DNA of 64,000 bases from Somniosus microcephalus (taxonomy: Eukaryota), in NCBI GenBank assembly GCA_052327205.1, contig CM126233.1:33294001-33358000 (forward strand), given 5' to 3'. Every line of letters begins with the position of its first letter. The first letter of the stretch is position 1. The notes beneath the pieces are model-generated. The model was not told the DNA's origin. It saw only the letters and a program-made list of their open reading frames with translations, and did not search any database. The translations under genes were made by a program, and so were the position numbers. This document shows positions 2,470-51,476 of this stretch, one piece after another.

Positions 2470-2715
2470 ACCGTGCAAGTTGTTAAATTGAATTCAATAA
2501 AATCTGGTATATTATGAGCTGGCTCCAACAAAGGCATGACCATAAGGCTGCTAGATTGTCATTTTAAAAACCCATCTGGTTCACTAACAAGGGGGAAAAG
2601 AAAACCCGACCCATCCCTATGTGGTCTGGCCTTTGTGACTGCAGTTCCATAAGGCAGCTCCGCAACGTCTAATTAGGGATGGGTAGTAAATGTTGCTTTG
2701 TCAGGGTTGCACCTC
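2470..2715 (+). mobile_element. Degenerate SINE sharing its tail with the LINE at 1258-1515
   Basis: Body AAAAACCCATCTGGTTCACTAA...GGTCTGGCCT and tail AATTAGGGATGGGTAGTAAATG, similar to 1460-1490. Confidence 0.5.
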
Positions 2716-4465
2716 ACACACACAGCCCCCCCGCCCCAACCGAAAAATAAACAAATTTGGAAGGACAGAATCTAGAATTGTACTGCTGCATGCCTAACTC
2801 AAATTTCACCATCACACTCAGTGACAACACTGGAATACCTAACAAATTAAGATGTACATTTTCATGGCATTTGGCATTGCAATATTTAATCGATATAATC
2901 AATGGAATACACTATTAAGATGGTCTGGTCTTAGACTGGCAGCAGTTCAGGTTTAAGGATTTGAGGTGTACTATTTCAGATTTCAGTACTACTGAAACGA
3001 GTGGACGATGCAGTGTCTTTCTCTTGCATATTGTGGGACCTGACTGCAGAGGTGTCCTTGTTTACTGTTGATTAACAACCAGTGAGAACATTAAGGAAAT
3101 TGTATGGCATAGAATTGCATTCAGATATTCCAAATTTTTTTGCGTGTATATATTGAATTATACTTCAGTTTTACTGTGAAGTGTTGTAAAGCAAACCACA
3201 GCAGATTTTCTTTTAATAGGTTTTAGGAGAAAACCTTGTGACCACATTAGCATTTGCAAACTGTGCTCAGTTAACTTCCACTTTTGTCTAAAGACTGTAC
3301 AGTTTAAAATTGGTTCGGTTGTATGTAAAATTCTGTTCAGATAAATATTTTTTTAAAAGCATTCTGTATTAATGCAAGACTTCATTAAAACCTGTGCTGC
3401 AACACTCCTTTTACTTGATCTCACTTCGCTGTGCCCCTGGGTGAATGGCCAAGTTTCAAACCCTCCCGTCAGGCATGACTTGACAAAGCAAGATTAGCAG
3501 GAGAGTTTCAACAGTCAGGGAAGGGCAAGAAGTGAGTCTGTGCCAGTGATCTCCCAGTGAAGCCTGTAGCGTGCAAAGGTGCTTCTTCGGATGAAAAAAA
3601 TGGGGAGCAATTCTACCCCTTGCACTTCACACCCTAGTAGGCGATCACAGAATAGCAACAGCAGAGGTTTTGGGAGCAAATCAAGCATCCATCCTCAGGA
3701 TTATGGATTCCAGCACTGAGGCAGGTGGGAGTTAGCCTGGGGAAAGCCAGCAGCACTGGCAGAGGGAGCTGTTTCTAACCAACTTTGTCACCTCTTGCTG
3801 CTGTTTGTGTGTGGGGGTGGGGGGGGGGGTGTTGCGATTGGTGTCAAAGCATAGCCAGCCTACTTTAGGAAAGCTGATACATTCAAAACAACCCTATCTC
3901 AGCCTGTTCTCCCCTCCCAAATCATGGAAGATTACCCGCTCCGAGAGTCATGGGTAGCCCCTGGCCCAGGGTTGTCGATGCTCCAGGAAGTAAAGGTTAA
4001 TCGCCAGGCCACTGCTGCGGGCAAACGGGAGGAAAATCATGACATTCACTTTTTTCCACCATTTTCTTTGATAACTTTAATTTATTAGTTATAAAAATAT
4101 TAGCTATTTGGGCCAACATTCCTCCCTCGAGCATCAGCACCAAAAGCAGATGAACTGATAAATCCGATTGTTGTTTGCGACATCTTGCTGACTCTTCATG
4201 CCAACAATTGCCGATTAAAAGCATATGTGCCCCCTTTTTAAAAGGGACACAACAAATAAAGACTGTAAATTAACAAATTTGAAAGGAACCTTAAATCAAA
4301 TTAAAATTTTGTTCCCGGGGTGATGATGCACTCCACTCCAGTCCCTCCGGTCACAGAAGGCCTCGTGTGCTGGTGGACACCACGCGCGACTTCTTGCTGT
4401 GCACAACATGGCTACTGCAATAACAGTTGCTGTATGGTAAATCATTGTAAGTGAAATGCTTGAGA

Positions 4466-4655
4466 TAATGGTGTTTCCCAAGGGTTCAGTACCAAGACCA
4501 CTGCTGTTTTTTTGATATACATTAATGACTTGGACTTGAGGGCACAATTTCAAAATTGGCAGAGGACATGAAACTCGAAAGTGTAGTAAACTATGAGGAA
4601 GATAGTAGTAGACCTCAAGAGGACATAGGCTGGTGGAATAGGCGGACACATGGCT
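4466..4655 (+). mobile_element. Decayed CR1 reverse-transcriptase fragment
   Basis: Broken versions of the GVPQGSVLGP / IYINDLD / SKFADD motifs that are intact at 28900-29030. Confidence 0.55.
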
Positions 4656-6489
4656 GTACTATTCTGTGTGATAATTGTTATATAAATGGAAGTCTTTCTT
4701 TCAGCCCCCATTCAGATACTGCTGGCTTGAAGCTTCGTCCGAAACTTAGAAAGGGATGCGAATGGCTACCTGCTGAAAACACAATTCTCTTTAAAAAATC
4801 AATCGCCGAACAGTTGAGTCACTTTTTTTTTAATAAAACATAACCATTTACATGATTGTTACACAACTGAATGATTACAAGAATCACACCAGATTAGAAT
4901 TTCATTTCCCATTTTGAAGTATTGCAGTTCACACACATACCTCTGTTTTCAGCTCACCACTCAAAAGCAGCAGAATATAAGTTCTGGGGTGGGCAGGGTG
5001 CTGCAGAATAAGTACACTGAATTATTTTAATACAGTAGATCAAGACTAGGTTATACATATCAGATATGGATGCTGATGGCTTGCATTTTCACAGAGAAAC
5101 AGTCATCAGCAGTACAGAATACAGAAAGCTATGTGCAGTCGCTGGGTCAGTTGCACAAAAGGTTTGATTGTTTATCTCCGACGGCTAAAAAAAAGGCACC
5201 ACTCTTAAACCGCACCCCTCCTCCATCACTAAGACAAAATTAATGACAGTACTTGACGGAAAATAAGGCAATCTTCACCTCTCACAGGAATGTGCTATTT
5301 ATAGAAAGAAAAAAACCCTGTTAACTCAAAGACAGAAACCACTGCAAAATATTCAACAGCTCAGTACCCACCTGAAATATTAACCTACCTTCTGTTTCAG
5401 ATGCTGACACACCTGGTGTGTATTTCCAGCATTTTTGATTTTGTGGGGACTGAATCAGATACTTGGATCAGATTCCTGTCCCCAATTCCAGTAGAGAACC
5501 TAGTGTGTTTAATAAACCAAAACTCTCCCATTTCCTGCTCTGAAGAGAAATTCTGCCAATGCATAATTTTAGTACCAGGAGAGCACATTCAACTAGGTCT
5601 TTCAGCAAAGGGAGCTAGATATTTCAAATAAGATACATAAAATGGTAGAACCCCCACCCCCCCCCCAAAAAAAAATATATATGTAAACACTAGTAATTTG
5701 GCTAGTTTTGACAGAAGCACATTAATGCACTCTGGCATTCAGTACACCAAAAATAAAACTTATTTTAAGAGTTACATTATGTGCTATTTCTTGTCTAATA
5801 CTGTTGTCTATATGCTAACTATAATCAGGCACTTCACTCACTATCGCCCTGTATTTGGGTTGCCACCTTTTCCCCCACCCCAAGTCCATGGCTTGGACTA
5901 GAGGTGGGATCGACGCAGGGAGTAGGATCACGACTCGGGTTCCGTTTGCTTTGCTAATGATGAAATTCATTTGAAAGTTTAATCATCAACAATCTTGCAT
6001 CATAGACACAGGAGTAAGTGGAGGGGGGGGGGGTGGGGTAACTGGCAAAGTCTGGTTTGGCATCTTTAGAAATTTACAAAGCTCACTTTCAAAACGTGGA
6101 CTGGCCAGTTCAAAACACCATCCCACCCAATTTAACAGGCAGCACGTACAAAGGAGGAACTTGTGCAGCTAATGTTCCATTAGGTAAACTCAACAGTTTG
6201 TACACAAGACCTGCTGTTCTACAGATAAGTACACATATTTTAAACAGAAACATTCAGGCCATCTATAAAATACTGATAATCCTCCGAGGTTTTCCATTGA
6301 CATGATTAGCCACAATAATCTTGGCAGAGAAAGGTTGGAATTTAACAAGAATAGCTAAAGCAGACAAAACATCCCCATTCTTTTGACAAGTCAAAACGAC
6401 TATCCTTGTCAATTGTACTTCACATGTGTAACTTTTCTCCGATGGAGAGAAAGCATAAACACTCTCTAGAATTCTTTATAACACAGGCT

Positions 6490-6750
6490 GGGGGGGATAT
6501 TTAGGACTGAGATGAGGAGAAATTCCTTCACTCGGAGGGTGGTGAACCTGTGGAATTCTCTACTGCAGAAGGCTGTGGAGACCAAGTCACTGAATATATT
6601 TAAGAAGTAGATGGATTTCTAGATGCAAAAGGCATCAAGGGGTATGGGGAGAGAGCGGGAATATAGTATTGAGATAGAGGATCAGCCATGATCACATTGA
6701 GTGGCGGAGCAGGCTCGAAGGGCCGACTCCTGCTCCTATTTTTCTATGAT
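6490..6750 (+). mobile_element. CR1 LINE 3' end
   Basis: FRTEMRRNSFTRRVVNLWNSL motif and a 3' UTR matching the CR1 copies at 22260-22520 and 29670-29930. Confidence 0.85.
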
Positions 6751-6779
6751 GGAGGTTGTTAAAATTCTGCCTTAGCAGA

Positions 6780-7235
6780 TTTGGATAAGATATTTGAAAT
6801 GGATGGTAGGACTAAAGGGCATGCCTACAAAATACAAAAAGTGTTACGTTGGAAGCCAGGAAGTATTTCTCTGAGCTCTCTGCAATCGGTTACTGGTAGA
6901 TGCAGTAAATATGGGTATGCGACATTCCTTAAGAGACTGGGCAAGTCCTTGCGGAGGGAGGGCATTGGGATGCATCTGAAGCGTGCGCACTTGTTTTAAG
7001 TTCATCTAGTGAGCCATCATGGGTAACCATGGTGTCCCAGAGCATACTCGAATGCCTCTTGGAGATGGGGAGGAATTTCCCAGCTTTTTTCCAGAAATTG
7101 GCCACCGGTTTTCTCCTGTTTTCTGACCTCCCCACGAGCAGTGACTGAGGAGGGTAGTGCATGAAGCTTCACTGTCTCTTGGACATGGTGAGCATTGATG
7201 GGTCCGACTGCCTTTTTCTGCCCTTTTTTAATGTT
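6780..7235 (+). mobile_element. Ancient, highly decayed CR1-like 3' end
   Basis: DGRTKGHAYKI resembles CR1 xRTRGHxxKI; CR1-like terminal motif ...GATGGGTCCGACTGCCTTTTTCTG. Confidence 0.45.
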
Positions 7236-8335
7236 TGTTAAATTCCCTACTTCGATAACGGAGTAAAATGCATCTGGGGATCTACAAAATGCAATTTGGG
7301 ATCATAAAAACTTTATTAAGAAAGTTCACTGTTTGAAGGTCACATATATAAAACCCAAATTGCATTGTGTGAAAGGGACTGAAGAGTAACAGAAAGCCAC
7401 AAACATTACCTGCAGCTTAAATATGATCTTTACAGAGTTAGACATGAATACCCTGAAACTACACCAAGCATTCAAACACATTGGGTTTGTATGAAATTCC
7501 TGTGCCATTTTAATGGAGGCTTTAACCTGTTTATTTTAGTAAGTACTTTCTTACAAAGTAGGGATCAAAAGAATTTCGTGCAATACCAGTTAACTATCCA
7601 TGCATTCGCATTTGAAGAGCTAAGTCTGAGTCAGAAGAGGATGAAGACCAAGTATGATTGCTTCCTCCCCACGGCAGTCAATTAAAACAAGCAGCATTGC
7701 CCAACTCCCATTTATACCACATAATAACTGGGTAAAATCCAGTTTTAGCTGATGGGTTATTGATTTTTTTAAAAAGGGGGGAAAATGACACCCATATGTA
7801 ACGCACTCAGGGCTGGCTGGCATTATGATACTCGAGCACGAGTCCACGTACAGCCCCAGACAGCAATACTTCACAGCACATGATAGCTTGGCAGCAAACT
7901 TAATAAATGTCTTTGTATTAATAATAAATGTCTTTAGCTGCACTAAAGTAATACTGAATTTTCAAGTCGTAACAATATATTAATGTAATTGCTCCTTTTA
8001 ATGTGAGTATAATAAAAAATATATACTTGATAAGGATAATATCCCCACACATTCACAATCACTTCAAAATACAGGGTTGGCGAGAATAGCCGTCACCATG
8101 CTGCCCTTACGAAGAAAAATTGGGAGCACAATTCAGTATCGTGTACCTCTTGGACTGAACTGACGCTTCAGACAGCTCATTATACTCTGAACAGAGCATT
8201 TGTAATGCTGGGACCAGGCATCATCCAGGTTGATCTAGTATGATAGCAAAATACTGCAGATGTTGGAAATCCGAAATAACAACAGAAAATGCTGGAAAAC
8301 TCAGCAGGTCAGGCAACATCCGTGGAGAGAAATTT

Positions 8336-8373
8336 GAGTTGACGTTTCGGGTCGAACCCTTCTTCAAAACTGG
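8336..8373 (-). ncRNA. Minimal type I hammerhead-ribozyme-like motif, sense to PEAK1 mRNA
   Basis: Minus strand reads AGUU-UUGAAGA-A-GGGU(UCG)ACCC-GAAACGUC-AACU: stem I AGUU/AACU, core box with C3U change, stem II, GAAA, palindromic ACGU and a GUC site. Confidence 0.5.
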
Positions 8374-8451
8374 AAAGAAAAGAAAATAGATCCAAGGCAG
8401 GGCTGCGATTTTTGTCCGATCGCAGCCCTGCCTTCGATCTATTTTCTTTTT

Positions 8452-8489
8452 CCAGTTTTGAAGAAGGGTTCGACCTGAAACGTCAACTC
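8452..8489 (+). ncRNA. Minimal type I hammerhead-ribozyme-like motif (mirror copy)
   Basis: AGTT-TTGAAGA-AGGGTTCGACCT-GAAACGTC-AACT; same architecture as the left arm, with one G-U pair in stem II. Confidence 0.45.
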
Positions 8490-9127
8490 AAATTTCTCTC
8501 CACGGATGTTGCCTGACCTGCTGAGTTTTTCCAGCATTTTCTGTTGTTATTCCAGGTTGATCTCTTGTTCCATTGTACCTTTTACGGAAGGAAAGTATAA
8601 TTCCTTCGGGACTCCCCGTGGCTACAATTTACCTGGTTTTGGTCTAATTTTCCATATGGTACACTGAAGCATTCATAGGAAGGAACACCGAGCTGATAAA
8701 TTCCCCCCCAAATACCCATGAAACTACCACCACCAATTCAGTCTATCCTTAACCCTTCAGTGTCACACTCAACGAAACAGTCCCAAACATTAAGTAAGCA
8801 AGCAAAGCGAGGCATTGTAACATTGCCACTGTGTTGTTAATTAATGTTCTTTCACTGTTGTTAAAGATTAACTAAAATATTTTTGCTGCATCAAAATAAA
8901 CTGGTAGAGACAGGAGTTGTAAAAGCAACTACAGGTATATAGATTCTGCATCTCAAGCTAGTATAAAGATCACTCTGTTGAGTATTATTACGGTTGACTA
9001 TAGTTCAATGAAATTACAATGAGTAACTATCAGAAAGGCCTTGGAAGATATCATGATCACCATATGATTAGAAGAAAGATTTGCACGATTTCTAACGCTG
9101 CATCCTTAATCACCAACATACTCAGTA

Positions 9128-9427
9128 CAGGAAACTTTGTGCTATCCGGCACCGACGGGACCGAGCTGTTGCCGTCCCATCAAAACTGCCGGACAAACCA
9201 GCGCTAATGTTAAAACATACGGAGCTTTTGAGCTCCGTATCTAGCAACAAACCCTGTTGCTTCTAAACAGTCGGCCGTAGCTTGCAAGCTTTAGCTAGAC
9301 CTTGCAGAGCCTGACTGGTGGAAAAAAAAGCAACGAAAAGAAAAAAAACACTGAACCGACTCCTGGATTTTGCCGGTGGATCGAGCATTCCGGACAGTTA
9401 AACCTCCGGATAAACCAAAGTTTCCTG
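9128..9427 (+). mobile_element. Tc1/mariner-pogo (Tigger-like) MITE, family A
   Basis: TIRs CAGGAAACTTTG / CAAAGTTTCCTG with TA on both sides. Reverse complement of the copies at 20049 and 32497 (strand label arbitrary). Confidence 0.9.
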
Positions 9428-10041
9428 TACCACCACACTCCAACCCCACCCCTCATTAACTCCCATCTTTCACCCTGGTTTGCCTGCCTTTATTCATCTT
9501 GCTTCAGTTGGGAGGTCAAGACAGGACAACGTGGGGGCTTCAAGTTCTCTATGATTGCCATCAACACCACCACCCTGTAATGGAGCAGCACACAGGCAAA
9601 ACAAGTTGGCCGACAGCAGGTTTTTCCCTCTTTCATCTAGCAGCCCTGCCGAGATCTGAAGAAGTAAGATTACATTTGCTTGACAATCTGTTTATGTGCA
9701 ACTGACCCACTAATGCAATTTTAGCAAAGTGGCTGTAGTTTTTTTTCAAGGCATGATATAAGTAAACATACAAATTGTCATAGCTTCAACAACAAACATC
9801 CGAGGATCCATTTTAAGAGCAAGTTACAGCTTGCATATGTGCCTAGGAAAGAAAAAAAACATTTGTTGCTTATTGTAGGCATCACGTTCCAAAAACGTAG
9901 AAATCTATTACATACACTTTAAATACTGCCATTTACAAAGTCGGAACATTTACAAAAAATTGCACATTAATCCAAATTTGGTGGGAGAGGGGAGGGGGGG
10001 GGGGAAGGGCGAGGAAGGGGAGCAAGCAGCAGTCACACAGG

Positions 10042-11163
10042 TTACTGGAGCTGGAGCAGCTTCACAATATGACTGAGGGATTCTACCGAGGCGAAGGCCA
10101 AGTACTGACAGCAAAGCCAGACCTCGAGGCTAACACTGCATTCGGTGTCTATGGCCTTCTCTGCGAATTTGATCATGAGCAGCGTCCGTTTTAGGTCCAG
10201 CCAGTTCTGCAGCACGCTGTGCCTCTCCGCGCTGCTGCTGCGCGAGTTGAGCGTCTGGAGCAGGTCGTCTCGTGGTCCCCAAAGGAGGCACTGCAAGTAC
10301 ACTTTGGCATCTGAAATAAGGATGCGCTCCGAGGGATTGGGGTGCAGGAGGAGACCCGCCAGCTGCTGAAGCCCCTGGGAGTAGACGGAGCGTTTAGGGA
10401 TGGCGGGAAGGTCTATTCGGGTGTACTCCTTCTCTTTCAGTTCTGGGTTTTCTTCAAATGGATTGGGCAGGTGCAACATTTCGTAAATGAGTATTCCCGT
10501 TTGAAACTCATCACACTTTTTGTACTGGGTAATGGTGATGATCTCGGGTGCCAGTCTGGACTGATCCCTTAGCACCTCTAGATCTACCACCTGACTCTTC
10601 TGCTTGGCCTGGGAGAAGTTACTGACGATCAGTCGTGCCAGCTGCGTGGCTGGGTTCGTGTTTTCCGATTCACAGTCTCCTGGGGTTCCGTGCCGACACC
10701 GCACCAAGAGCAGATTCTCCAACCTCAAGTCGCAGTGTGTAACGTGGTGTGGCTTTAAGTGATTGAGGCCGGCACAGAGTTGGAGCAGCAGTAAGCACAC
10801 CTGCCGCTCGTAGATATCTGGGTTTTTCGCATGCCGAGGCGCTGATTCACGCACAAAGTCGGCAACAGTCTGGTATGGAACCTCTCGAGTGATGACCACC
10901 ACACGACTTCGGTGTTTGCTGGAAGTTCCCTTGGTACTGGAGTTGTTCTTTTTTATGGCATTAGGAACATCTGAGCTCTCTTCCTCTTCCTCCTCTTCTA
11001 ACACTGGGGCGTTGGGATCCTCCCAGGGAAGCATGCGGACTGGGACCTCAGCTAGGAAGTGCCCGCAGTCCTGTTGGATGTTGAAGTGCACGGCAAGGCT
11101 TTGTCTTACAGCCAGACTGTGGTAATACAGCTGCTGGGATGCTTTTGCTTGACTTTTACAAAT
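10042..11163 (-). CDS. PEAK1: PEAK1 last coding exon: pseudokinase domain and C-terminal SHED helices
   Basis: Acceptor cttttcttttccag|ATT at 11163. Translates ICKSQAKASQQLYYHSLAVRQSLAVHFNIQQDCGHF...HCDLRLENLLL...SNFSQAK...RLAPE...WLDLKRTLLMIKFAE. HRD is HCD and DFG is NFS, as in PEAK1. Stop TAA at 10044-10042. Confidence 0.97.
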   Translation of the reverse strand: MCKSQAKASQQLYYHSLAVRQSLAVHFNIQQDCGHFLAEVPVRMLPWEDPNAPVLEEEEEEESSDVPNAIKKNNSSTKGTSSKHRSRVVVITREVPYQTVADFVRESAPRHAKNPDIYERQVCLLLLQLCAGLNHLKPHHVTHCDLRLENLLLVRCRHGTPGDCESENTNPATQLARLIVSNFSQAKQKSQVVDLEVLRDQSRLAPEIITITQYKKCDEFQTGILIYEMLHLPNPFEENPELKEKEYTRIDLPAIPKRSVYSQGLQQLAGLLLHPNPSERILISDAKVYLQCLLWGPRDDLLQTLNSRSSSAERHSVLQNWLDLKRTLLMIKFAEKAIDTECSVSLEVWLCCQYLAFASVESLSHIVKLLQLQ

Positions 11164-11334
11164 CTGGAAAAGAAAAGGTGGAAGCTAAAAGTTAAAATCT
11201 AGAGAAGAGGGCACCTTTCCCAGTGAGCACAAAAAACTAATTCCTGTAGCTGCACATTTCCACCACTAGATGGAGCTTCATAATCTGCAGATTCCCAGGG
11301 CTGTACGACAATAACTTGCATTTACAGTATTTAC

Positions 11335-18405: not shown

Positions 18406-20048
18406 GCAAAGTTACAAAGGGTTAAGAAAGAAACTATAAGCCAGGTGATCATGTATTCCAACATACACTGTTAAAGCAGTAACTAGATTTTAAAAGTTGC
18501 TATAATACTTGCCAGCTAAGAAATCCCCATCCAAAAATGTGAAGTCTTTTAGAATTTGAATGCTAACAGATCTCTGGTCCATCAATGCATGGTCTTTCTC
18601 CAGTGAGAAGAAAGGAGAATTGGAGGGAAAGCTATTGTGGACCACTCGTTCTCCTCCTGGTGGGCAGATTAAGAGTATTGCAAATTGGAGTTTGCAAACG
18701 AGCACCTGCCTCTAACCAACAGTTTACCATGAAGACACCAATGATTGTGTGGGAGGAGGGAGGTGGGGGAACTGGAAATGAGGCAGGGTAAAGTTGTGGC
18801 ACTTCTACCGAGAAGGCAAAAGGGTTAATTTTGTTGTAGAATATTTTTGTTAATTTGAATATGTTAAAATAATTGTACTTAAATGTATAAAGATTATTCA
18901 CAAGACTGTAAAGCTGTGTTATGAAAAATAAAAGTGGCATGGAAATAAAAATTAACAGCAACTATCCTTAAAGTCACAGATACAGCAGGAAACAGAATGG
19001 ATGCAGTGCAAGTTGGGTACGGCAGGATGAGCTGAGGTATCACCTGAGGCATCGACAGCTAAAGTGTTGTAAAATTCAGAAATATATAATTTTCAAGAAG
19101 TTTGGGTTTGAATGCTTCGATTTAAAGCACTTTTGGAGTGAGGGTCTGAGGAGAGCACAGAATAAAAACTGTCTAAGCAAAATCTTGCAGGAATAAGCTG
19201 TTGCCAAGCAACCAAGGAAGTGGAAACTACAGACAAGTACTTAAGACCACCCAAGACAGAAATCTTAATACTGTATAAGCTGCCAAATCCTGTAACCAAC
19301 AGTCACAGTTAATGAGACTAAATTTTTAAATAAAGTTGCATTTTTGCTCCTTTATTCAAAGGCACTTATCCAACGACATGTGTTATTAATTATACCTAAA
19401 CTTGAAAGAATTTGACACTGCACTGCTTATTTCAAGTAATTCAAAAAGCATGTGAATTCTCACGATATTTTATGAGACAGGAAAAAGAAAAACTCTCTTT
19501 AAAATGTACAAGTTTGAAGCTCAAGTGGCTACATTCCCAGAGGAACACATGAAACCCATGGCTTTTTTTCTTATTCCTAGAGCTTGTCTGTTGAGCAGCA
19601 AGTCTCAAATATCACTAATCACATAAATACAGGTAGCTGGGAGGAAATTCCAAACCATGCTTGCTGCAGCAGTACCTAAACCCCCATCCGCACCAACATT
19701 GTCCACATTCTCCTCATAAGGAAATCGGTCTGAATTTGTGTTGACACAGTGGCCATACTTTGATCTCGAAGAGTGGTGACATATTGACTTCCCATCACAT
19801 TTAGATTACTGGCTTTACTTGCAGAATATAAGTGCGAGGAGAAAGATTGAATGGACTCGCACATCATATAACTGATTATAAATACTTCTGCCAGGTTAAA
19901 CAAGTTGATAGTCTGCTGGCTACAAACACCGTTGAAACTTTGAACCTGGACTGATATCCCTTTGTTCGAGTCCATCCAATAACCGTCGACTTTGAACAGA
20001 AGCACAACGTTGTCCTGCACTCTTGGGAGGGGCGAAAAAAATGGAGTA

Positions 20049-20366
20049 CAGGAAACTTTGGTTTATCCGGAGGTTAACTGTCCGGAATGTTCGAGTCACC
20101 GGCAAAAATCAGGAGCCGTTTCGTTAGGTTTTTTTTCTTTTCGTTGCTTTTTTTTTTCCACCAGTCAGGCTTTGCAAGGTCTCGCTGAAGCTGTTGCTAA
20201 GCTACAGAGACGCTTACAAGGTACGGCCGACTGCAACAGGGTTTGTTGCCAGATACGGAGCTCAAAAGCTTCCGTATGTTTCAACATTAGCGCTGGTTTG
20301 TCCGGCAGTTTTGATGGGACGGCAACAGCTCGGTCCCGTCGGTGCCGGATAGCACAAAGTTTCCTG
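20049..20366 (-). mobile_element. pogo/Tigger-like MITE, family A
   Basis: CAGGAAACTTTG TIRs, TA TSD, near-identical to 32497-32819. Confidence 0.9.
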
Positions 20367-20475
20367 TAGCTATAAACAACATCTCCCCGCCAGAAAAAAG
20401 TGCAAACTGTTTCTTTGGACACCGTCTAAATGGTGATTATTTGTGTGCGAGTATCGACAGCACCTGGCTGTTAGT

Positions 20476-20660
20476 ACATAGAATTAACAGCACAGAAACA
20501 GGCCATTCGGCCCAACTGGTCCATGCTGGTGTTTATGCTCCACACGAGCCTCCTCCCACCCCTCTTCATCTCACCCCATCAACATATCCTTCTATTCCTT
20601 TCTCCCTCCTGTGTTTATCCAGCTTCCCCTCAATGAATCCATGCTATGCGCCTCAATTAC
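20476..20660 (-). mobile_element. CR1 3' tail
   Basis: Same sequence type as 11335-11500 and 49012-49205. Confidence 0.75.
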
Positions 20661-20767
20661 TACAGTGATTCTGTCCAGTTTCCACAAAAACTGCCTTGGC
20701 TATGGTTTTTCGTGATGACCAAATTTTGGTACGCTAAAAAATGGTGAGAATCATTCTGAGCGCTTAC

Positions 20768-21549
20768 CTTGATTGCATATTGGTTATAGAGGTCCTTAGC
20801 ATAGGATGCTGTGTAGTAAACGGCATCACCTGCCTCACAGCAAGGTTTATCGCTCGTCAGTCTGAAGTCTGACCAGTTGTCCAGTCCAAAGCGAAGCTGG
20901 TTCTTTTGGCCCTCCATGAATTTGTCCTCACATTTAGCTGCCAGTTTCCGCAGCGAGTCTGTATGGAGATTTCGAATCTTTATCACCACCTCCTCTTTGT
21001 TCTCAATCCCTTTGTACAGTGCGTGCCTTTGTGGCTTTTGTATGCTTTTACCGGGTCTCTGAGGAAAACGATTCTTCTCGGATAGTGAATCCAAGCTATT
21101 TGAGCACCTTTCCTTACTGCTGCTCATGGCAAGGCTGCAGGTACTGTTGGCCATTGATGAAATGCTGGCCTTTGTCACTGACTTGCCCACTGCTCTGTCC
21201 AGTGAATCTCCCGACTCATTGTCACATATTCTGGCATCTGAGCTAAGTGAGGAACAAGCACTTGATGCATCCCAGTTTGCGTCCCCAGGATACTCTACAT
21301 CATACAGTGGGTTTGCCAAGTTAACATTGTGCCCAGAATTTCTCACTTCTATCATTTTGTGGACATAGTCCTTTGATGCTGGATCAGTGTTTGCTCGGAT
21401 TATGGTCTTTTTTGGAAGAGGGGGTGGTGTTGGCTGACTCTCGGACATGGTTTCCTGTTCTGTGGATCCCGAAAATGCAATGGCATCATCTGAAGCTCCT
21501 TTCACTTGTCTTGGCTGCTTCAGGGGTATCATGTTGGCCCGCGATTGCC
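20768..21549 (-). CDS. PEAK1: PEAK1 coding exon 3: Crk-SH3 and 14-3-3 motifs, N-terminal SHED helix, start of pseudokinase
   Basis: Acceptor ttgtatag|GG CAA TCG (phase 1) and donor ATC AAG|gtaagc (phase 0), 782 bp. Encodes GQSRANM...PPPLPKKTIIRANT...NPLY...LHTDSLRKLAAKCED...WSDFRLTSDKPCCEAGDAVYY...YAIK. Confidence 0.96.
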
Positions 21550-21857
21550 CTATACAATCACATAAAAAAAGCTTTAGAATCATAGTACTGTTCGACAACA
21601 TATGCACTTTACTGAACAACTGCACAGTTTTTAATAAAAACACACTTTGGATTGAACATGGCTTCTGAACACTAACTTCCGATACCGGTGAAAATGTATT
21701 TCTCAGTGTTCAATATAAATTTTGGAATTTCATAGATCAATTTAAGCGTTTAGCTTTCAGGCCATAAGAGGATTGCGAACCAGCACTTCTGATCAGTAAA
21801 GCACGATGAACATAATTGCAGTGCACTGGAGCCATAGTGCAGTCACAGTTCATTAAC

Positions 21858-22527
21858 TGCAGCAGGCGGTTAAGAAGGCAAATGGTATGTTGGCCTTCAT
21901 AGCGAGAGGGTTCGAGTACGGGAGCAAGGATGTCTTGCTGCAGTTGTACAGGGCCTTGGTGAGACCACACCTTCAGTATTGTGTGCAGTTTTGGTCGCCT
22001 TATCTGAGGAAGGATGTTCTTGCCATGGAGGGAGTGCAGCAAAGATTCACCAGACTGATACCTGGGATGGCAGGAATGACGTATGAGGAGAGATTGGATC
22101 GACTAGGCTTATAGTCGCTAGAGTTTAGAAGAATGAGAGGGGATCTCATTGAAACTTATAAAATTCTAACAGGACTAGACAGACTAGATGCAGGAAGGAT
22201 GTTCCCGATGGTGGGGGAGTCCAGAACCAGGGGTCACAGTCTAAGGATAAGGGGTAAGCCATTTAGGATTGAGATGAGGAGGAATTTCTTCACCCAGAAA
22301 GTGGTGAACCTGTGGAATTCTCTACCACAGAAGGCAGTTGAGGCCAATTCATTAAATATATTCAAGAAGGAGTTGGATATATTTCTTAAGGCTAAAGGGA
22401 TCAAGGGTATGGGGAGAAAGCAGGGACAGGGTACTGAGTTTGGATGATCAGCCATGATCTCATTAAATGGCGGAGCAGGCTCGAGGGGCCGAATGACCTA
22501 CTCCTGCTCCTATCTTCTATGTTTCTA
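21858..22527 (+). mobile_element. 5'-truncated CR1 LINE
   Basis: ORF2 C-terminus (LYRALVRPHL.YCVQFWSP; FFTQKVVNLWNSLP) with an in-frame stop, plus 3' UTR; very similar to 60825-61826. Confidence 0.92.
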
Positions 22528-24730
22528 TATTACCCTGCTATGAGTGTACGAAATCCTTTACATTTTAGATTTATAGTCTTACTGATCCATAAATTAGCAC
22601 CAAGTGAGTGGCACCACTTACAGTGAAAAACTTTATACTAGCAGCTGTATACTGCTGTTAGACACAGCAACTACAGTCCACCGACACTTCAATTTCAGTG
22701 GGGCTTATTTGAATTTTTCCACCTTCTCTCTGTAGGTAGTTCCGCGAGCACCAGCGATCCTCTATGCAGTACAGAGGGTAGATTTTTTTTTTAACAAAAT
22801 GAAATCAATGCATGCAGATATCAAGGCGGCAGCAAGATTGGTTTTAGACAGGGAGAACCAGTTTTGGTTACTGTTGTGATCACGGAGTTCAAGATTATTT
22901 GATTACATACCTGGCTGTGGAATGGAAATGGTTAGTCACGCAGCCAGTTAAAGAGTGGGTTATGTTGATTTTAATCATGGTATCAGGTATGAAGCAGGCA
23001 TGGCCATAAAGAGATTTTAAAGAATGCTGAGAGTAGCAGTGGATCGGGGGGATGAAGAGCCAGGGAGGGCTGAGGGATTAAAGAGTTGTTGAAAGCAATA
23101 AGAATAATATACGTGCTCAGAAACACTGAAGCTCTGGGCAAACTTCCAAAGAAGACAGAAGCTTTACAAAGAAAAACTGAAAGTGCTTCAAGAAAACCGC
23201 TAACTCAAATGATTTTCATAAAAATCTTTCTGAAAAGCTACATTTATGAAATAGCCATCTGCATAGATGCTTCACTGTGCTTACATTTAATGTGATTGCA
23301 TTTAATTGCCAAGCGTTTTTCACTGCATAGAATGTAGTTTTGAAGTCATGTTTCATCCTCCTGCAGAATATGAGTAACCCAACATACCTCTGCTCCAGTA
23401 ACCAGTTAGTGGAGATTGGCATTCTCCTCAAATTCAACATTGCCACAGACAATAAAAAGGTCTTACCTGGTGCCAGTCTGCAGTAACACAAACATTGTTC
23501 TCACAGGCATTCCCAATTAGACAATTATACATGGCCAGCACATAGATGCAGCACACATTTTCTACACTGCAAACACAAAGATGTGACCGTGATACAACGT
23601 CACGATCGCCATCATATCGCAGGGCCCCGAGACAAACTATGGGACAATCCCATCCATAGAACAATTTCAGTGACACCTGCAATTTGTATTTTTAACAATT
23701 AAAACTTTGATAAAATCTGAACTCAGAGGACGTAACTTACCAGGAAAAAGTATCTGTCTAAATAAGTTGGATGATCTTTACAAAATATAACAGTCACTGA
23801 TAATGACAAAAATTGAATAGGCTTTAAAAGGGGTCTCTCATCAACAGCCACCTCAACCCTACAAAGTTCGGAACCCTTCTGTGGCAGACTTGGTAATCTG
23901 ATCCTGAACCAGGCGGGTCTTCAGAACGACAGGGTATGGTTGATAATCAACTAGTCTGTCTCTTAATGGGACCTGGAGGTGTACACGGTCACTGAGAACT
24001 CAGATTCTTCCCACTCAGTTCCAGATAGTCCTTCTAGCAAGCAGTGTGGTCCCAGCTGGACAAGCAGTGAGATGCTTACAGTGCTCTATCCAGGCAAGAT
24101 CCAGTTTTACCTGGTTAAACTCCATCAGTACCCCTGTGCAAATTCAGGGGTTCTCTAAACCTTGGCCCTGCCAACAGTAAGCTCTCTGGCATTGGGTAAG
24201 TGGGGTGTGCTCCTCTGGGAGACAGGTGTTCTCCGTAATGGACAAAACAGAAATTTCTACACGTGTGGCTTTCTCTTGGTTTGGATACTCAAACAACACC
24301 GACTGATCCAAGACAAACTTTCAATGGCAGGTTTAAAACAAGCCAATCAGTGTTATTACTGTGCTTGATTACCAATCCAACAGCTCATTTCAAAAACCTC
24401 AAAACATTTAATTGGCACTTGAGTCAATAATTCCATGTAGTGAACAGTCATCAAGATGTCAAAGCCATTTCCGAGCCGCACCCACTGGAATCACTGAGAT
24501 ACATCAAAAAAAAACTGCAGATTTAGCTCAACCAAGTAATTTCTGCCCAAACTTCAGGATTACTCCCCCTGCTGGGCCGGTTAGACAGATACAGATTAGG
24601 AAGCCCAATGAGCAGCTCAACACATGCTGCAGAAGGGCAGGTTTCAAATTCTTAGCCCACCGGGACAACTTCTGTGGAAGGATAGGTTTTTTACCATTGG
24701 GATGGCACCACCTAAATGAGAAGGCATATT

Positions 24731-26929: not shown

Positions 26930-27094
26930 TAGTGTTTACAGTGTACATAAAATGATTTGGAGCTAAGGACAGAAAACAAGCTAAGTTAACAGATGACGCC
27001 AAATTGTGATGGGGAATTGGCGGGCGGGGGGGGGGGGGGGGTTCCAACAATATCTAACAGATAAACCAAATACAAAGCGATCTGGCTACATTAG

Positions 27095-29934
27095 AAGTAA
27101 ATGGGTATGATGTAATTGCCATTACAGAGACATGGTTGCAGGGTAACCAAAGCTGGGAACTGAATGTTCCAGGGTACTCAACATTTAGGAAGGACAGACA
27201 AAAAGGAAAAGGAGGTGGCGTAGCGCTGTTAATAAGGGATGAGGTCGGTACGGTAGAGATAAAAGGTCTTGGCTTGGCAGTTCGTGATGTAGAACTGGAA
27301 TCAGTTTGGGTGGAGCTAAGAAACAGCAAAGGGCGGAAAACATTGGTGGGAGTTGTGTATAGGTCACCAAACAGTAATGGTAATGTAGGGCACAGTATCA
27401 ATCAAGAAATTAGAAGTGCATGTAACAAGGGCAATACAGTAATCATGGGGGACTTTAATCTACATATTGACTGGGCAAATCAAATTACCACTAATGGTGT
27501 GGAAGACAAATTCTTGGAATGCATGCGAGATGGTTTCCTGGATCAGTATGTGGAGGAACCAACCAGGGAACAGGCTATTCTGGATCTGATACTGTATAAT
27601 GAGAAAGGGCTAATCAATATTCTTGTGGTAAAGGGGCCTTTAGGGACAAGTGATCATAATATGATTGAATTTTACATTAAGTTTGTGAGTGATGTAGTCC
27701 AATCTGAAACTAAGGTCTTCAATCTAAACAGAGGAAACTACAAGGGTATGAGGGACAAGTTGGCCATGGTAGATTGGGAGACTACACTAAAAGGTATGAA
27801 GGTGGACATACAATGGCTAACATTCAAGGAAATAATGCATAATTTGCAACAAACATATATTCTTCTAGGGCATAAAAACCCAAAAGGAAAAGTGATCCAA
27901 CCATGGCTAACAAAAGAAATTAAAGCTAGTATTAAGTCAAAGGAGGAAGCTTATAAAGTTACCAGAAAAAGCGGTCAGCCCGAGGATTGGGATCTTTTTA
28001 GAAATCAGCAAAGGGGGACCAAGAAATTGATAAAGAAAGGGAAAATGGAATATGAGCACAAACCAGCGAAAAATATAAAAACAGATTCTAAAAGCTTCTA
28101 TAGGTATGTGAAAAGGAAAAGACTGGCGAAGGTAAATGTAGGTTCTTTACAGTCAGAGACGGGAGAATTTATAATGGGGAATGAGGAAATGGCAGAGAAA
28201 TTAAATAAATACTTTGTTTCTGTCTTCATGGAGGAAGACACAAAAAACCTCCCAGAAATACGAGAAAACCAAGGGTGTGGCGAGAATGAGGAACTTAAAG
28301 AAATTATTATTAGTAAAAAAAACAATACTAGCAAAATTAATGGGACTAAAAGTCAATATATCTCAAGGACCAGATGACCTACATCCTAGGGTTTTGAAAG
28401 AGGTGGCCATTGGAATAGTGGACGCATTGGTTGTCATCTTCCAAAATTCTATAGATTCTGGAACGGTTCCTGCAGATTGGAGGATAGCAAATGTAACCCC
28501 GCAATTTAAGAAGGGAGAGAGAAAATGGGGAACTACAGACCTGTTAGCCTCACATCAATAGTTGGGAAAATGCTGGAATCTATTATAAAGGATGCAATAA
28601 CTGGGCACTTAGAAACTAATAGTAAGATTGGGCAGAGTCAACATGGATTTATGAAAGGGAAATCCTGTTTCACCAAACCTATTGGAGTTCTTTGAGGATG
28701 TAACTAGTGGAGTAGACAAAGGGGAACCAGTAGATGTGGTGTATCTGGATTTTCAGAAGGCCTTCGATAAGGTCCCACACAAGAGGTTGGTGAACAAAAT
28801 TAGGGCACATGGAATTGGGGGTAATACACTAGCATGGATTGAGAATTGGTTAACAGACAGAAAACAAAGAGTAGGGATAAACGGGTCTTTTTCAGGATGG
28901 CAGGCTGTGACTAGTGGGGTACTGCAAGGATCGGTGCTTGGGCCCCAGCTATTCACAATCTATATCAATGATTTGGATGAGGGGACTAAATGTAACATTT
29001 CCAAATTTGTTGATGACTCAAAGCTAGGTGGCAGTGTCAGTTGCAAAGAGGATGTGAAGAGGCTTCAAGGGGATCTCAACAGGCTCAGTGAGTGGGCAAG
29101 AACATGGCAGATGGAATATAATGTGGATAAATGTGAAGTTATCCACTTTGGTAGAAAAAACAGAAAGGCAGAGTATTTCCTAAATAGTGAAAGATTGGGG
29201 AATGCAGATGCTCAAAGGGACCTGGGTGTCCTTGTACATGAGTCACTGAAAGTGAATGTGCAGGTGCAGCAAGTCATTAGGAAGGCAAATGGTATGCTGG
29301 CCTTCATTACAAGAGGATTTGAGTACAGGAGTAAAGAAGTCTTACTCCAATTATATAGGGCCTTGGTGAGACCACACCTGGAGTACTGTGTACAATTTTG
29401 GTCTCCTTACCTAAGGAAAGATATACTTGCCATAGAGGGAGTGCAACAAAGGTTCACGAGATTGATTCCTGGGATGGCGGGACTGTCATATGAGAAGAAA
29501 TTGAGTAAACTAGGCCTGTATTCTCTTGAATTCAGAAGAATGAGAGGGGATCTCATTGAAGCATACAAAATTATTACAGGGCTTGATAGGATGGATGCTA
29601 AGAGAATGTTTCCCTTAGCTGGGGAATCTAGAACCAGTGGCCACAGCCTCAAGATAAAGGGTAGGCCATTCTGGACTGAGATGAGGAGAAATTTCTTCAC
29701 ACAGAGGGTGGTGAATCTTTGGAATTCTCTACCCCAGAGGGCTGTAGAGGCTCAGTCATTGGGTATATTCGAAACAGAAGTCGATAGATTTCTGACTAGT
29801 AAGGGCATCAAGGGATATGGCGATAGGGCCGGTGAATGGAGTTGAGGCAGAAGATCAGCCATGATCTCATTGAATGGCGGAGCAAGCTCGAAGGGCCGAA
29901 TGGCCGACTCCTGCTCATATGTTATGTTCTTATG
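27095..29934 (+). mobile_element. Young CR1 LINE with nearly complete ORF2 (APE endonuclease + RT), frameshifted
   Basis: ORFs 27136-28377, 28214-28561 and 28682-29845 carry AITETW, GVVYRSP, MGDFN, SDH, YLDFQKAFDKVPH, QGSVLGP and FVDD. Frameshifts near 28320 and 28520. (TATGT)-type tail. Probable TTAG duplication at 27091-27094 and 29935-29938. Confidence 0.95.
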
Positions 29935-32496
29935 TTAGGAAGATGAGTGGCAAATGGCATTTAATGTGGGCAAATGCAGGTAATGAGACTAGGGAGGGCA
30001 AATTAACAGTAGAATTAAAAAATAAAGGCCTGAGGACACAGGACATAATACAGGCGAGGGATCTGGGGGTACAGGCAGATAATTGATTTAACCTGACAGT
30101 GCAGTGTGTGGCAGCTATACTTAGTTTAAGGCATCTGAGCCAAGAGGAAAGGTTGAAGAACCTGGGATCACTTACTCTGGAGAAAAGATGGCTTGCGGGA
30201 GATATTCCAAGTATTTACGATTCTTAAGGGAATTGATAAATGGAACCCAATAATCTGTTTGAGATTCCCACAGATTCGAGAACCAGGGGCACAGCCTCAT
30301 GCTTAGGAAAGAGAAAGTGCACAGGCAGTTTAGGTTACTATATGTAGAGGATAGGGTACTTTTGGACAGGACCACTCAAGGAAGAGGTGGAGACAGATAA
30401 GGTGGACCCATTTAAGAGAGGATTGGATAGATATTTGAGAGATGGTCAACTGATAGGTATTAGGCTTTTGGAACTGGCCAAATAGAATACAGTGTCTTTT
30501 CTGGTCTTGCACCTTCCTATGTTTACTCTATGGTCAGTTTGCTGTTCCACTCTTCTGGACATTTTAGTGAGAAAAAAAAACTACAATAGTGAATTGTCTG
30601 TATTACAAAAAACTGATTTCCAATTCTTCTCTCCACGCATGTGCTATTTCATGATTGATACAACATCCATGTTTCCAGATGCTACCAATTATGCTCTGTA
30701 ACCGAAGACATGCATGCACCATGCTTTAGATGTTCCCTCCCTCCCTCGACAGAATAGAAACTCACTATGCAGAGCAAGGGTTCTCAGAATGAAGCCCGGG
30801 GCCACTTACAGCCCACCTCCTCCTCACCTGTGGCCCTCAGCAGAGGCGTTGCTCCATCTGTCTCTGGGCCTCCATCCACAGCCCGCCAGCTCTGGGATTT
30901 TGCTGGAGCCAGGATTACATACATATAAAGAGAGAGAAAAATAGAGGAGAGAGAAAGAGAGAGAGCAAGATTGGGATTGTGACCCTTAACAAAAAAGTTA
31001 GTAACTCTGATGTACAAATTACTGCACAGTTACATCTTACCACTCAGCACTGCCGCCTTCTGCACCAGTGCATCACAAGAAACATTTTTATTTTTAAATC
31101 CTGACCTGAGCAATAATCATAGAATGAACATTCATGACGCAATAGTTTGAATGCTGTTCATTTGAGAGAAGCGCTTTGTGATGGGGCTACGGCATTGGTG
31201 CAAGTCATGGTGCATCAGTATTTGGTCAAACAGTGTATTACTAGAAGTGAATTTTTGACAAAAAATCTCGAGTAAAAAATATTTGATAGCTGACTGTAGG
31301 AATCATTCAAAAAGCAGGGAAAATTTCATTTGTCACCATGGAAAAAATGCCAAAAATCTCAGGTTTATTGCAGGACAAACTGAGAAGCTCGCACCAGGAA
31401 CGAGTGTAACTAGCTATTATTCTGGAATTAATTTATATGTATGCAGACCAACTCCTGATGGACTCTTGGTGTGACGTACCATTTGCATCATTTAGTGCGA
31501 TGTTTCTGAAAGAGTCAGTGAAAATGCTAGCTTCTGCCTGGTATGTCTGCAGAGGCCACTGCATGCTGGGCACCACCTAGCATGTGATTAATTGCGTAAA
31601 TCCACCGTCTCCATTCAAGCTGTTCTATAATGGACATACCATCAACATCTCATTGGCCAGGGATGTGCGTCACAGGAGCAGTTTGAGCGGGAATGAGGCG
31701 CTACATCATCAATCACGTGCGTGGTAATGTGTGGCGATCGATGAGTGGGCAGTCCAAATGGCAACAGAATCCAGTTGGATTCTTTCTGGCCTTTTTGGCT
31801 CAGTCCACACTAAACAGTACAATCACCCACTGAGCTATCAAGGTGGTTTCAAATATGCTTGCCACTTGCAGAAAGAACCCAGTGCTTATGAGAAAAGTAT
31901 TCTTAACATTTTTTCAACTCAGTTTAGCAATTTAAAGAAGGTGACATTGCCTGTTACAGGCCTGAATGAGATATATAGACAATTATGAGTGTGCCCATTT
32001 TGAAAATGAACAGGGTCAGTAGAAATCAACAGAGAAATTTGGTATGTTTTGTGAAGAACAGTAACATTTTCTGATAGAAAATCTATTTTCCCACAATTGA
32101 TAAGAAAATCAATGAACAGCAACAATTTGTAAATATTTGTAATTGTGGAGATAGGCAGGGTTAGGCTGTAGAGGGGTTTGAAGACAAGAATGAAGATTTT
32201 AAATTCAATGTGTTGGGTGACAGGGAGCCCATGTCGGTCAGCGAGGACCGGGGTGAAATTAAACATTATTTCACAAACCATCATGATTACACATTCATTC
32301 AAGATAGCAATTGGATTAAAATGGGTCTTTTATTCAATCTATCACACATCTATAACACAGCTTTTATGTCATAAGGGTCTCTATGCATTTTACTGCCATT
32401 TTTCACTGGCAATCTTAGTGCACAGATGCTGTCAAAACAGTGACCATTTTGTCTGAATGACTATGTAACAGAAACAGCCATCAGTAAGTCCAAATA

Positions 32497-32819
32497 CAGG
32501 AAACTTTGGTTTATCCGGAGGTTAACTGTCCGGAATGCTCGATCCACCGGCAAAAATCAGGAGCCGTTTCGTTAGGTTTTTTTTCTTTTCGTTGCCTTTT
32601 TTTCACCAGTCAGGCTCTGCAAGGTCTCGCTGAAGCTGTTGCTAAGCTACAGAGACGCTTGCAAGGTACGGCCGACTGTTTAGAAGCTAACAGGGTTTGT
32701 TGCCAGATACGGAGCTCAAAATCTCCGTATGTTTCAACATTAGCGCTGGTTTGTCCGGCAGTTTTGATGGGACAGCAACAGCTCGGTCCCGTCGGTGCCG
32801 GATAGCACAAAGTTTCCTG
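32497..32819 (-). mobile_element. pogo/Tigger-like MITE, family A
   Basis: CAGGAAACTTTG TIRs and TA TSD. Confidence 0.9.
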
Positions 32820-33546
32820 TATCAACATCTCAATGTGGTAGTGGTCATTTTGAGTTTGGTGGGTTAGTAGGAAAAGAAATTAAGATGCAGTCAAACAATT
32901 TCAAAACAGTAAGTGTGATCTTATTTGAAAGCTTAAGACTTGTTGATTTCAACTAGTAATTACCCTCTTTGGGAAGGAAGTGACAAATGGGATTTCTGTG
33001 GTATCAAGTCGGCTCCAAAATGACATGCCTGCCAATGGAAGGTTGGAACGGAGTCAATCTTCCGTGGTAGGCACAATAATCGGATACCTGAGCCAGGCAG
33101 GTCCACAGGGAACTGTTGACGATTGACCAGTCAGCATGGCGCGCTAATAGAGACCAGGAGGGCTAAACCTGTCACAGAGGGCGGATATGTTTCTCACTTG
33201 GCTGCAGATAACCCTAAACGTTCCAACAGGTAGGATTGTCCTGGTTGGCAAAGCAGTAGGACTCTTACCAGTGTTCCGTGCAGTTTTAACTTGATGAACT
33301 CCAGTAAACTCAGGGTCCTTAAGTCTCGGCTCTGGCCAATTTACGCCTAAACTCTCTGGACTTAGATAAGTGGGGAGTCCCCCTATGGGGCAAGAGTGTG
33401 CGCTCCATCAGATAAACAGAAACTCTGCCTCTGTGGCTTTCTCAACAGCTGGGTTTGGAGAAGTTTGAGCACGGTTATAGATTTCGGTGGATATCAGATA
33501 CCCATCTGATCAGAGAAATCACGTTGAAATATGCAGTAGTCACAGG

Positions 33547-46600: not shown

Positions 46601-46835
46601 TCATGGTGGGCTTCACAGCAATTGTTGGCTTCTTAGCAACAGGAGGTCGAAAGTTACCAGTGCCTGACCTACCCCGGTGGTTGTTGCTGTGGTTAGCATT
46701 AGTTTTTAAATTGTTACATGAAAGAGGGGGGGTTTCAGAGGCAGTAGTCAAACAATGCAAACTTTTGGGCTTAAAACAGTTCTTGCATTCACCAGGCTTC
46801 CAGACGTGTTCAGTGAAGGCGTTGCAGGCGGACAT
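43618..46835 (-). CDS. PEAK1: PEAK1 giant first coding exon: N-terminal disordered scaffold region
   Basis: Starts MSACNAFTEHVWKPGECKNCFKPKSLH (PEAK/pragmin N-terminus). Contains AKKPTIAVKPTM, NAYDNLAIYKSF, HTYEEI and PKRWISFKSFFRRRK. Donor AAC AA|gtaagtg at 43618. Confidence 0.97.
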
Positions 46836-46954
46836 TTTTCACAGAGCTGCTCATGAGATGCCCCTTGCTTACTGCATTGTAATACATTCATTGATAAGTC
46901 TCACTTTTTATTCATCACCAAGTTCTTTGATCAGTGCTCTGTGTCAACACATAC
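46836..46954 (-). other. PEAK1: 5' UTR part of the PEAK1 start-codon exon, with multiple uORFs
   Basis: Acceptor ttttgtttccatttccag|GTATGT at 46954; six ATGs in the 119 nt before the main ATG. Confidence 0.7.
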
Positions 46955-51147: not shown

Positions 51148-51476
51148 TTTCCCCTGGCTAGGGAGTCTAGAACCAAGGGTCACAGTCTCCGAATAAGCGG
51201 TCAGCCATTTAGGGCTGAGATGTGGAGAAATTTCTTCACTCAGAGGGTGGTGAATCTTTGGAATTCTCTACCCCAGAGGGCTGGGGAGGCTCAGTCATTG
51301 AGTATATTCAAGACAGAGATCGACAGATTTTTGAATATTAAGGGACTCAAGGGATATGGGGATAGTGCAGGAAAGTGGATATGAGGTGGAAGATCAGCCA
51401 TGATCTTATTGAATGGAGGAACAGGCTCGAAGGGTCAAATGGCCTACTCCTGCTCTTATTTCTTATGTTCTTATGT
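51148..51476 (+). mobile_element. CR1 LINE 3' end
   Basis: FPLARESRTKGHSLRI...FFTQRVVNLWNSLPQRA plus a 3' UTR like 29610-29934. Confidence 0.88.

Follow-up and report, generated by a model that had tools for sequence, protein, structure and literature searches.

The window analysed here is a 64,000-nucleotide stretch of the Somniosus microcephalus genome (assembly GCA_052327205.1, contig CM126233.1, forward strand positions 33,294,001 to 33,358,000). It carries a real, young, single-copy fold-back insertion in the likely 3' UTR of PEAK1. Very probably, an abundant Penelope-like element (PLE) inserted its 3' end here once, without further propagation, in the layout of a tail with an adjacent inverted truncated copy and likely through two-strand-primed reverse transcription. 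Its one-off PLE origin, taken by itself, we regard as even more probable. The layout is already known from published PLE insertions, and the insertion is, in itself, of little weight, being one of many such products. The part worth keeping is a countable rule. The two arms of inverted insertions in this family end at two different preferred start sites of the element, A and B, with one arm per site in nearly all cases, and this near-strict pairing bears on how Penelope inversions form.

Architecture of the insert

As the sequence-only reading of this DNA had claimed, 314 bp are enclosed by perfect 13-bp direct repeats and include two inverted arms, of 135 bp (8275-8409) and 132 bp (8419-8550), with 9 nt between them (Table 1). 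The arms show 4 differences over 128 aligned bases. The 9-nt loop described in that reading is present, but it consists of element sequence, the right arm being 9 nt longer than the left. Moreover, arms and loop account for only 276 bp. The remaining 38 bp form an unpaired tail outside the hairpin, which had been missed and which is the diagnostic part of the insert. The site-B arm measures 173 bases with its tail and the site-A arm 141, and the two are bluntly joined between 8409 and 8410. It is correct that the insert contains no ORF, yet the arm lies in frame with the ORF start of its parent element and retains the parent's first in-frame Met.

Both strands are predicted to fold at -263 kcal/mol (z -28.9 for the plus strand and -30.5 for the minus strand), and none of 100 shuffles was equally stable in either case. 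A transcript of the site would, on this modelling, form a duplex of ~130 bp in which a hammerhead motif is buried.

Table 1. Features of the insert and of its PEAK1 surroundings (window coordinates).
Feature	Position	Strand	Basis
Inferred PEAK1 3' UTR, ~5.2 kb, hosting the insertion; ATTAAA at 4829-4834	4814..10041	-	Stranded reads and relatives' contigs
Left target-site duplication, 13 bp	8224..8236	.	Repeat match and single copy at the organism A empty site
38-bp tail between the two preferred family 3' ends (sites A and B)	8237..8274	-	3'-end counts, 96 arms
Site-B arm: 5'-truncated element 3' end (pLTR), element-sense on the PEAK1 strand	8275..8409	-	
Putative hammerhead motif with U3; predicted cut between 8341 and 8340; sense in PEAK1 RNA	8337..8371	-	Sequence compared with the description in PMC4209133
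Site-A arm: inverted, 5'-truncated, tail-less copy; 8410-8418 is a 9-nt overhang forming the loop	8410..8550	+	
Second putative hammerhead motif with U3 and C11.1U at 8476; antisense in PEAK1 RNA	8454..8488	+	Sequence compared with the description in PMC4209133
Right target-site duplication, 13 bp	8551..8563	.	Repeat match and organism A empty site
PEAK1 last coding exon (pseudokinase C-lobe), stop at 10042-10044	10042..11184	-	

Empty site and age

The proposal that the direct repeats are a true target-site duplication was confirmed by an empty site in a relative. In run X1 (organism A), one 4630-nt contig aligns with bases 2532-3099 to 8551-9124 and with bases 3087-4630 to 6698-8236. The overlap (bases 3087-3099) is a single copy of the 13-base repeat, mapping to both 8224-8236 and 8551-8563, and the site is therefore empty in organism A. 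A contig from organism B (run X3) follows the window only up to 8236 and has 165 further bases beyond that point, which is consistent with an empty site. The UTRs of both organisms differ from the window at ~4% of letters. In organism F (run X15), less than 1% different, contigs enter the insert by 22 and 28 bases at its two junctions; overlaps of this length lie below the 31-base bridging rule and fit presence of the insert. Absent in organisms A and B, the insertion is young.

The parent element

Exact matches to the final 51 bases of the right arm number 9,048 in the 6.4-Gb genome, while a reversed control has none. The surrounding loci contain long open frames with reverse transcriptase (RT, motif YIDD), a C-X4-CxxC linker and a GIY-YIG/CCHH endonuclease motif; in the natural copies L117, L081 and L095, YIDD is found together with LVY-C-x-x-C-x-x-C-GLLYIG...H...H. 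Pfam RVT_1 is matched at E 9e-6 and 26 bits, below its curated cut-off of 29.6, and no GIY-YIG family of Pfam was matched in the parent ORF, so that the endonuclease is called by motif. As in canonical EN+ PLEs, a single ORF holds RT followed by a C-terminal GIY-YIG with CCHH (by motif), and the linker upstream of the endonuclease, C-KRRR-C-NT-C, has the CX2-5CxxC form of Neptune and Nematis. By the definitions in the accessible text of PMC8557442, the parent would be a canonical C-terminal-endonuclease PLE of Neptune or Nematis type. Penelope and Poseidon are given there as being without the CX2-5CxxC linker, in contrast to the parent of the window's insert.

The arm itself corresponds to the 3' repeat (pLTR) of the element, and 4 of 96 sampled arms extend more than 1.4 kb into the ORF, as expected of a pLTR in partial tandem. 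The suggested Penelope-like origin of the insert is borne out by these copies, which continue into the ORF encoding RT and GIY-YIG. Open frames resembling pol and gag of LTR elements were also seen beside some Penelope copies (L094:2665-5001, L082:3733-5001, L101 and L108).

Start sites and inverted pairs

Family anatomy was read from the first 100 of the 9,048 matches (contig C1), unselected for shape; four duplicate rows were dropped, leaving 96 arms. Their 3' ends fall largely into two groups, with 55 at 0 to +9 past site A, 35 at +33 to +47 (site B) and 6 further on, the two sites being ~38 nt apart. Their 5' ends are ragged, at 56 to more than 2500 nt. An apparent truncation hot spot ~173 nt from the 3' end was rejected as a ranking bias of the best matches, as the 96 unselected arms scatter.

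The 96 arms include 15 exact-core inverted pairs, whose arms measure 56-1523 nt and whose flanks share repeats 8-20 nt long. Fourteen of these join an A arm to a B arm and one joins A to A (P 2.5e-4 under independent ends). When the partner was allowed to be diverged, 9 more pairs came up, all of them A+B. Seven other neighbours (3 B+B, 1 A+A, 3 other) share no flanking duplication and were left out of the count; four of them were inspected by eye and proved to be separate or nested insertions (3) and an internal pLTR of a counted pair (1). A further 18 likely fold-backs were picked by eye among the matches listed (100 of 849), of which 15 could be called, all A+B, and 3 could not; 14 of the 15 called loci have duplications of 10-15 bases. 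Over all three sets, A+B makes up 38 of the 39 inverted insertions that could be called, the one A+A pair counting against strict pairing. Sizes of the other inverted copies lie between ~120 bp and 2.6 kb, and every one of them has a junction of its own. With thousands of near-identical copies, the rule is countable genome-wide, and some 2,000 inverted insertions may be extrapolated for the genome if the proportion found over 45 Mb of a single contig, 24 of ~75 insertions, holds.

Arms of the same insertion are more alike than arms of different ones, which suggests a single template. In the 12 of 15 pairs long enough for comparison, arms of one insertion differ at 62 places in 2136 bases altogether, whereas the medians to other arms add up to 151. 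The likeness is weak in 3 of the 12 pairs, where over 20% of other arms are equally close, and the left arm of the window shows 2 differences to the right arm of another copy (L003) against 4 to its own partner. Later gene conversion could be an alternative source of the likeness.

A one-off insertion rather than a mobile unit

The sequence-only reading saw in the insert a non-autonomous hairpin retroelement that moved as one unit, which would mean transcription and reinsertion as a whole. In favour of this, five other near-symmetrical fold-backs of 307-320 bp with their own duplications occur among the best matches (40 of 2652 candidates scored). However, these rank high because the query had that shape, and their similar size reflects the ranking. 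None shares the centre junction of the window, whose 32 bases match only themselves in the 6.4-Gb genome at up to 1 mismatch. The centres of all six similar-sized fold-backs differ from one another, several with different subfamily letters on both arms, and arm lengths vary continuously in the unselected sample. Copies with a common internal structure and a common junction, as a unit element should leave, were thus not seen in this set, and we consider propagation as a unit very unlikely. Still less credible, to the point of being almost negligible, is an inverted duplication at the DNA level or a MITE, unrelated to reverse transcription. The hairpin shape and the lack of an ORF would suit such an origin, but duplications vary between 8 and 20 nt, fixed 3' ends contrast with ragged 5' ends, a tail is present on one side only, the parent codes for RT and GIY-YIG, and neither arm is present at the empty site.

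A one-off PLE insertion, on the other hand, is what the insert resembles, with its adjacent inverted truncated copy, its tail at one end and a duplication of the variable kind seen in EN+ PLEs. The accessible texts of PMC8557442 and PMC3846280 describe insertion units with a head-to-head inverted truncated copy, a one-sided tail, a target duplication and a pLTR overlapping the ORF start. The published tail, next to an inverted 5'-truncated copy, is 30-40 bp long (38 bp here), and target duplications in the rotifer examples are given as 8-10 bp (13 here) in the accessible part of the literature. The window differs from these units in that both copies are cut to the last 141-173 nt, so that the whole insertion is a near-symmetrical hairpin.

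Identity with non-LTR retrozymes was considered and rejected. The accessible text of bioRxiv 10.64898/2026.07.22.740005 describes these as non-coding, derived from PLE pLTRs and equipped with a type I hammerhead, all of which is shared here, and mentions that their rare exonic copies fall in 3' UTRs. Retrozymes are, however, arranged head-to-tail and amplify as a unit according to the same text, whereas the motifs of the window lie on opposite strands in a head-to-head, single-copy arrangement.

How the inversion may arise

The A+B insertion in the window may be pictured as follows. The GIY-YIG endonuclease of the element would cut the two target strands ~13 nt apart. One freed end would prime at the downstream site B and copy 173 nt, while the other would prime at site A and copy 141 nt of the same RNA region. 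Both copies would stop early and be joined end to end, leaving a hairpin, a one-sided tail and a 13-bp duplication. We lean towards reverse transcription primed from both nicked target strands, a reading drawn from genomic end patterns only. For the narrower version, a coupled reaction in which RT primes each nicked strand, obligatorily one per start site, and copies the same RNA, we put the chances only slightly above even.

Biochemical work on Poseidon PAc of Anolis carolinensis offers a comparison. In its accessible text, PMC11167929 describes two neighbouring internal sites at which RT starts, with the tail as the 30-40 bp between them, a ribozyme near the ORF start and uncut RNA as the main template, features that are similar in the present family. 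Both strands were cut and extended in vitro, and a dimer was predicted. The two strands were not seen to differ in start site in vitro, and this result does not, by itself, predict strict A+B pairing.

Another parallel is offered by other retroelements. In L1 twin-priming, two strands are primed during insertion, and the inversion that forms lies inside the target duplication, its join showing little microhomology or none. The present case would, by analogy, share inversion from two primed strands within the target duplication. L1, however, inverts a different, upstream part of the RNA, whereas here the same region is represented twice and both start points are fixed.

The same one-off element may instead have been inverted by self-priming or snap-back, in which the cDNA or an antisense template folds back upon itself, with the intermediate trimmed by the endonuclease at site A. 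The accessible text of PMC3846280 puts forward self-priming on an antisense template as the origin of head-to-head inversions in Penelope, and tail formation through resolution by the endonuclease was suggested in PMC8557442, which, in the part accessible, calls the formation of these inversions undefined. Self-priming would also account for variants common to both arms. Under it, however, the second arm could neither exceed the first nor gain a tail that the first lacks, and in the 14 exact-core A+B pairs the tail-less A arm is the longer in 9, the tailed B arm in 4, with one pair equal. As either arm can be longer, the pattern is not what copying back along a single first cDNA would give. 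Junction overlaps ranged from -6 to +4 nt, without a consistent long palindrome, where our script gave a usable value (12 of 32 junctions, the junction of the window not among them). We judge self-priming unlikely, although it is the most serious of the alternatives considered here. If true, the coupled two-strand reaction would account for both the inverted repeats and the one-sided tail of PLEs and would displace the idea of self-priming on an antisense template. A two-strand (twin-priming) model for PLEs was not found in our literature search, which covered subscription papers and supplements incompletely, nor was a strict count of one arm per start site found in the literature covered, though uncovered papers or supplements may hold one.

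Hammerhead motifs

In agreement with the sequence-only reading, each arm appears to contain one minimal type I hammerhead motif, one per strand. Its order is stem I AGUU / UUGAAGA / A / stem II GGGU-UCG-ACCC / GAAAC GUC / AACU, a layout that comprises helix I, an unpaired base after position 9, G10.1-C11.1, GAAA, a palindromic 15.2/16.2 and H17. The motif of the left arm is complete. That of the right arm has G10.1-U11.1, with C11.1 changed to U at 8476, a position at which C prevails in the reads of other copies. Core positions 3 and 8 (U3 with G8) form no Watson-Crick pair, unlike what is expected of minimal type I motifs. A search of positions 7000-10200 against Rfam with E up to 10 returned 12 matches, all below the gathering score and none to a hammerhead family, those to the hairpin being miRNA and snoRNA models; the motif call thus depends on pattern comparison with PMC4209133.

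The minimal PLE hammerheads in the accessible text of that paper likewise have no helix III, a palindromic 15.2-16.2, G10.1-C11.1, a 4-bp helix I and an extra base between 9 and 10.1. They include dual motifs on opposite strands, 100-700 bp apart, the same arrangement as here. They differ in having C3-G8 or a covariant U3-A8, against UUGAAGA with U3-G8 in the window, and a helix II of 6-8 bp against 4 bp. Natural U3-A8 covariation is known (accessible text of PMC3088659), and a halophile U3/G8 core with an insertion is mentioned in the accessible text of PMC7151607. Our literature search, incomplete in coverage and without supplements, found neither a PLE family with U3 opposite G8 nor a study of shark PLE hammerheads, and the accessible part of PMC6155905 added nothing on sharks.

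The substitution C3U had been described as a weakening change in both copies. U3 is indeed present in both arms, but it is not peculiar to the copy in the window, as core position 3 is T in 77 of 78 family arms and C in none, and TTGAAGA is found in 70 of 78. U3 is fixed in the active family and is not a decay of this copy. The fixation of U3 opposite G8 in a very successful family fits cleavage being weak or dispensable for spreading. The activity of PLE minimal hammerheads in vitro was low even as dimers (accessible text of PMC4209133). Hammerhead variants evidently coexist in the genome, as one copy of an older related family (L086, G000:C1 near 29663000) has the canonical C at core position 3, and a further related family has GAGAC instead of GAAAC.

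When monomers are folded, the hammerhead stems lie 3.3 and 4.1 kcal/mol above the best fold, with pair probabilities of 0.007-0.10. Disfavoured stems in the monomer are expected of dimer-type motifs and say nothing on activity. In a 401-nt context of the mRNA strand, pair probabilities of the hammerhead stems drop below 1e-15, so that the earlier suggestion that the hairpin sequesters the motif holds as a prediction.

In the unselected sample, copying went past the predicted cut site in 90 of 96 arms. Both arms of the window also run through it, and their template RNA was thus uncut. For shorter copies, the matches listed (100 of 849) were reduced by eye to 59 truncations by removing 36 of a related family, 2 duplicates and 3 internal deletions. 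No clear peak of cDNA run-off at the predicted cut site was seen among these 59, with 8-9 ending within one base of it against 5.5 if evenly spread. Truncations within the stem II region number 17 of the 59 listed, against ~9 if even, possibly from pausing at the hairpin. Judged from sequence, the hammerhead motifs are likely passengers of the pLTR, inherited from the parent element.

The PEAK1 3' UTR

The ORF at 10042-11184 is that of PEAK1, with PDB entry 6bhc as its best match (E 9e-161, against 4.5e-97 for SgK223). Stranded reads of run X18 in the direction of the coding exon have a depth of 5-13 at 8604-9107, 0-4 at 6820-8107 and 1-10 at 4888-5531. This coverage is thin and patchy, falling to zero at 9486-9611 and 7625-7785. 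Contigs of runs X1 and X3 (presumed to be RNA) end at 4846 and 4814, beside ATTAAA, where depth also falls. With X18 reads on both sides and continuous contigs from relatives, the earlier placement of the insert within the PEAK1 3' UTR is likely correct. Dominant polyadenylation at 9489-9494, which would exclude the insert from the mRNA, is contradicted by same-strand reads and a continuous contig that extend past the signal. None of 11 X18 reads at 8556 carries the window's own letter, and no junction-spanning transcript was seen in that run; run X17 left the unique flanks uncovered. On the arms, any locus-specific A-to-I signal is masked by reads that stem from other copies and number in the hundreds to thousands.

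Inverted Alu pairs in human 3' UTRs are a parallel for regulatory double-stranded RNA elements. By this analogy, the hairpin may have been retained as a regulatory duplex of PEAK1 mRNA, acting through A-to-I editing, Staufen binding or nuclear retention. We find this doubtful, more so than self-priming, in spite of a site inside the inferred 3' UTR, a predicted duplex of ~130 bp on the mRNA strand and, below the 31-base rule, the fit of the organism F contigs with presence in a second organism. Against these stand the youth of the insertion and its absence in organisms A and B, arms that are drifting apart (4 differences) and the presence of another young insertion at 9125-9430 of this UTR. 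The insert is most likely tolerated rather than functional. Were the hairpin found to be edited or to alter PEAK1 output, it would constitute a cartilaginous-fish parallel to the inverted Alu pairs.

Other features of the window

The second insertion in the UTR is ~305 bp long and MITE-like, with 25-bp terminal inverted repeats and TA flanks; it is absent from the organism A contig and presumably of Tc1/mariner type. Related copies lie at 20047-20368, 32495-32821 and 61343-61681. A related Penelope-like 3' end has left a short, diverged piece at 5365-5435 (81% over 36 bases), and the contigs of organisms A and B break or differ in letters at 5435. LINE fragments, presumably of CR1/L2 type, occur at 6499-6748, 21858-22540, 27058-29937, 51148-51476, 57454-57818 and 60576-61826, with long open frames of endonuclease-like and RT-like sequence at 27058-28377 and 28655-29845. 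More PEAK1-like coding exons lie on the minus strand at 43614-46838 and 20660-21709, including an open frame of 1074 codons without a Pfam match. Another palindromic stretch, 86% self-complementary over 139 bases, is located at 50196-50332.
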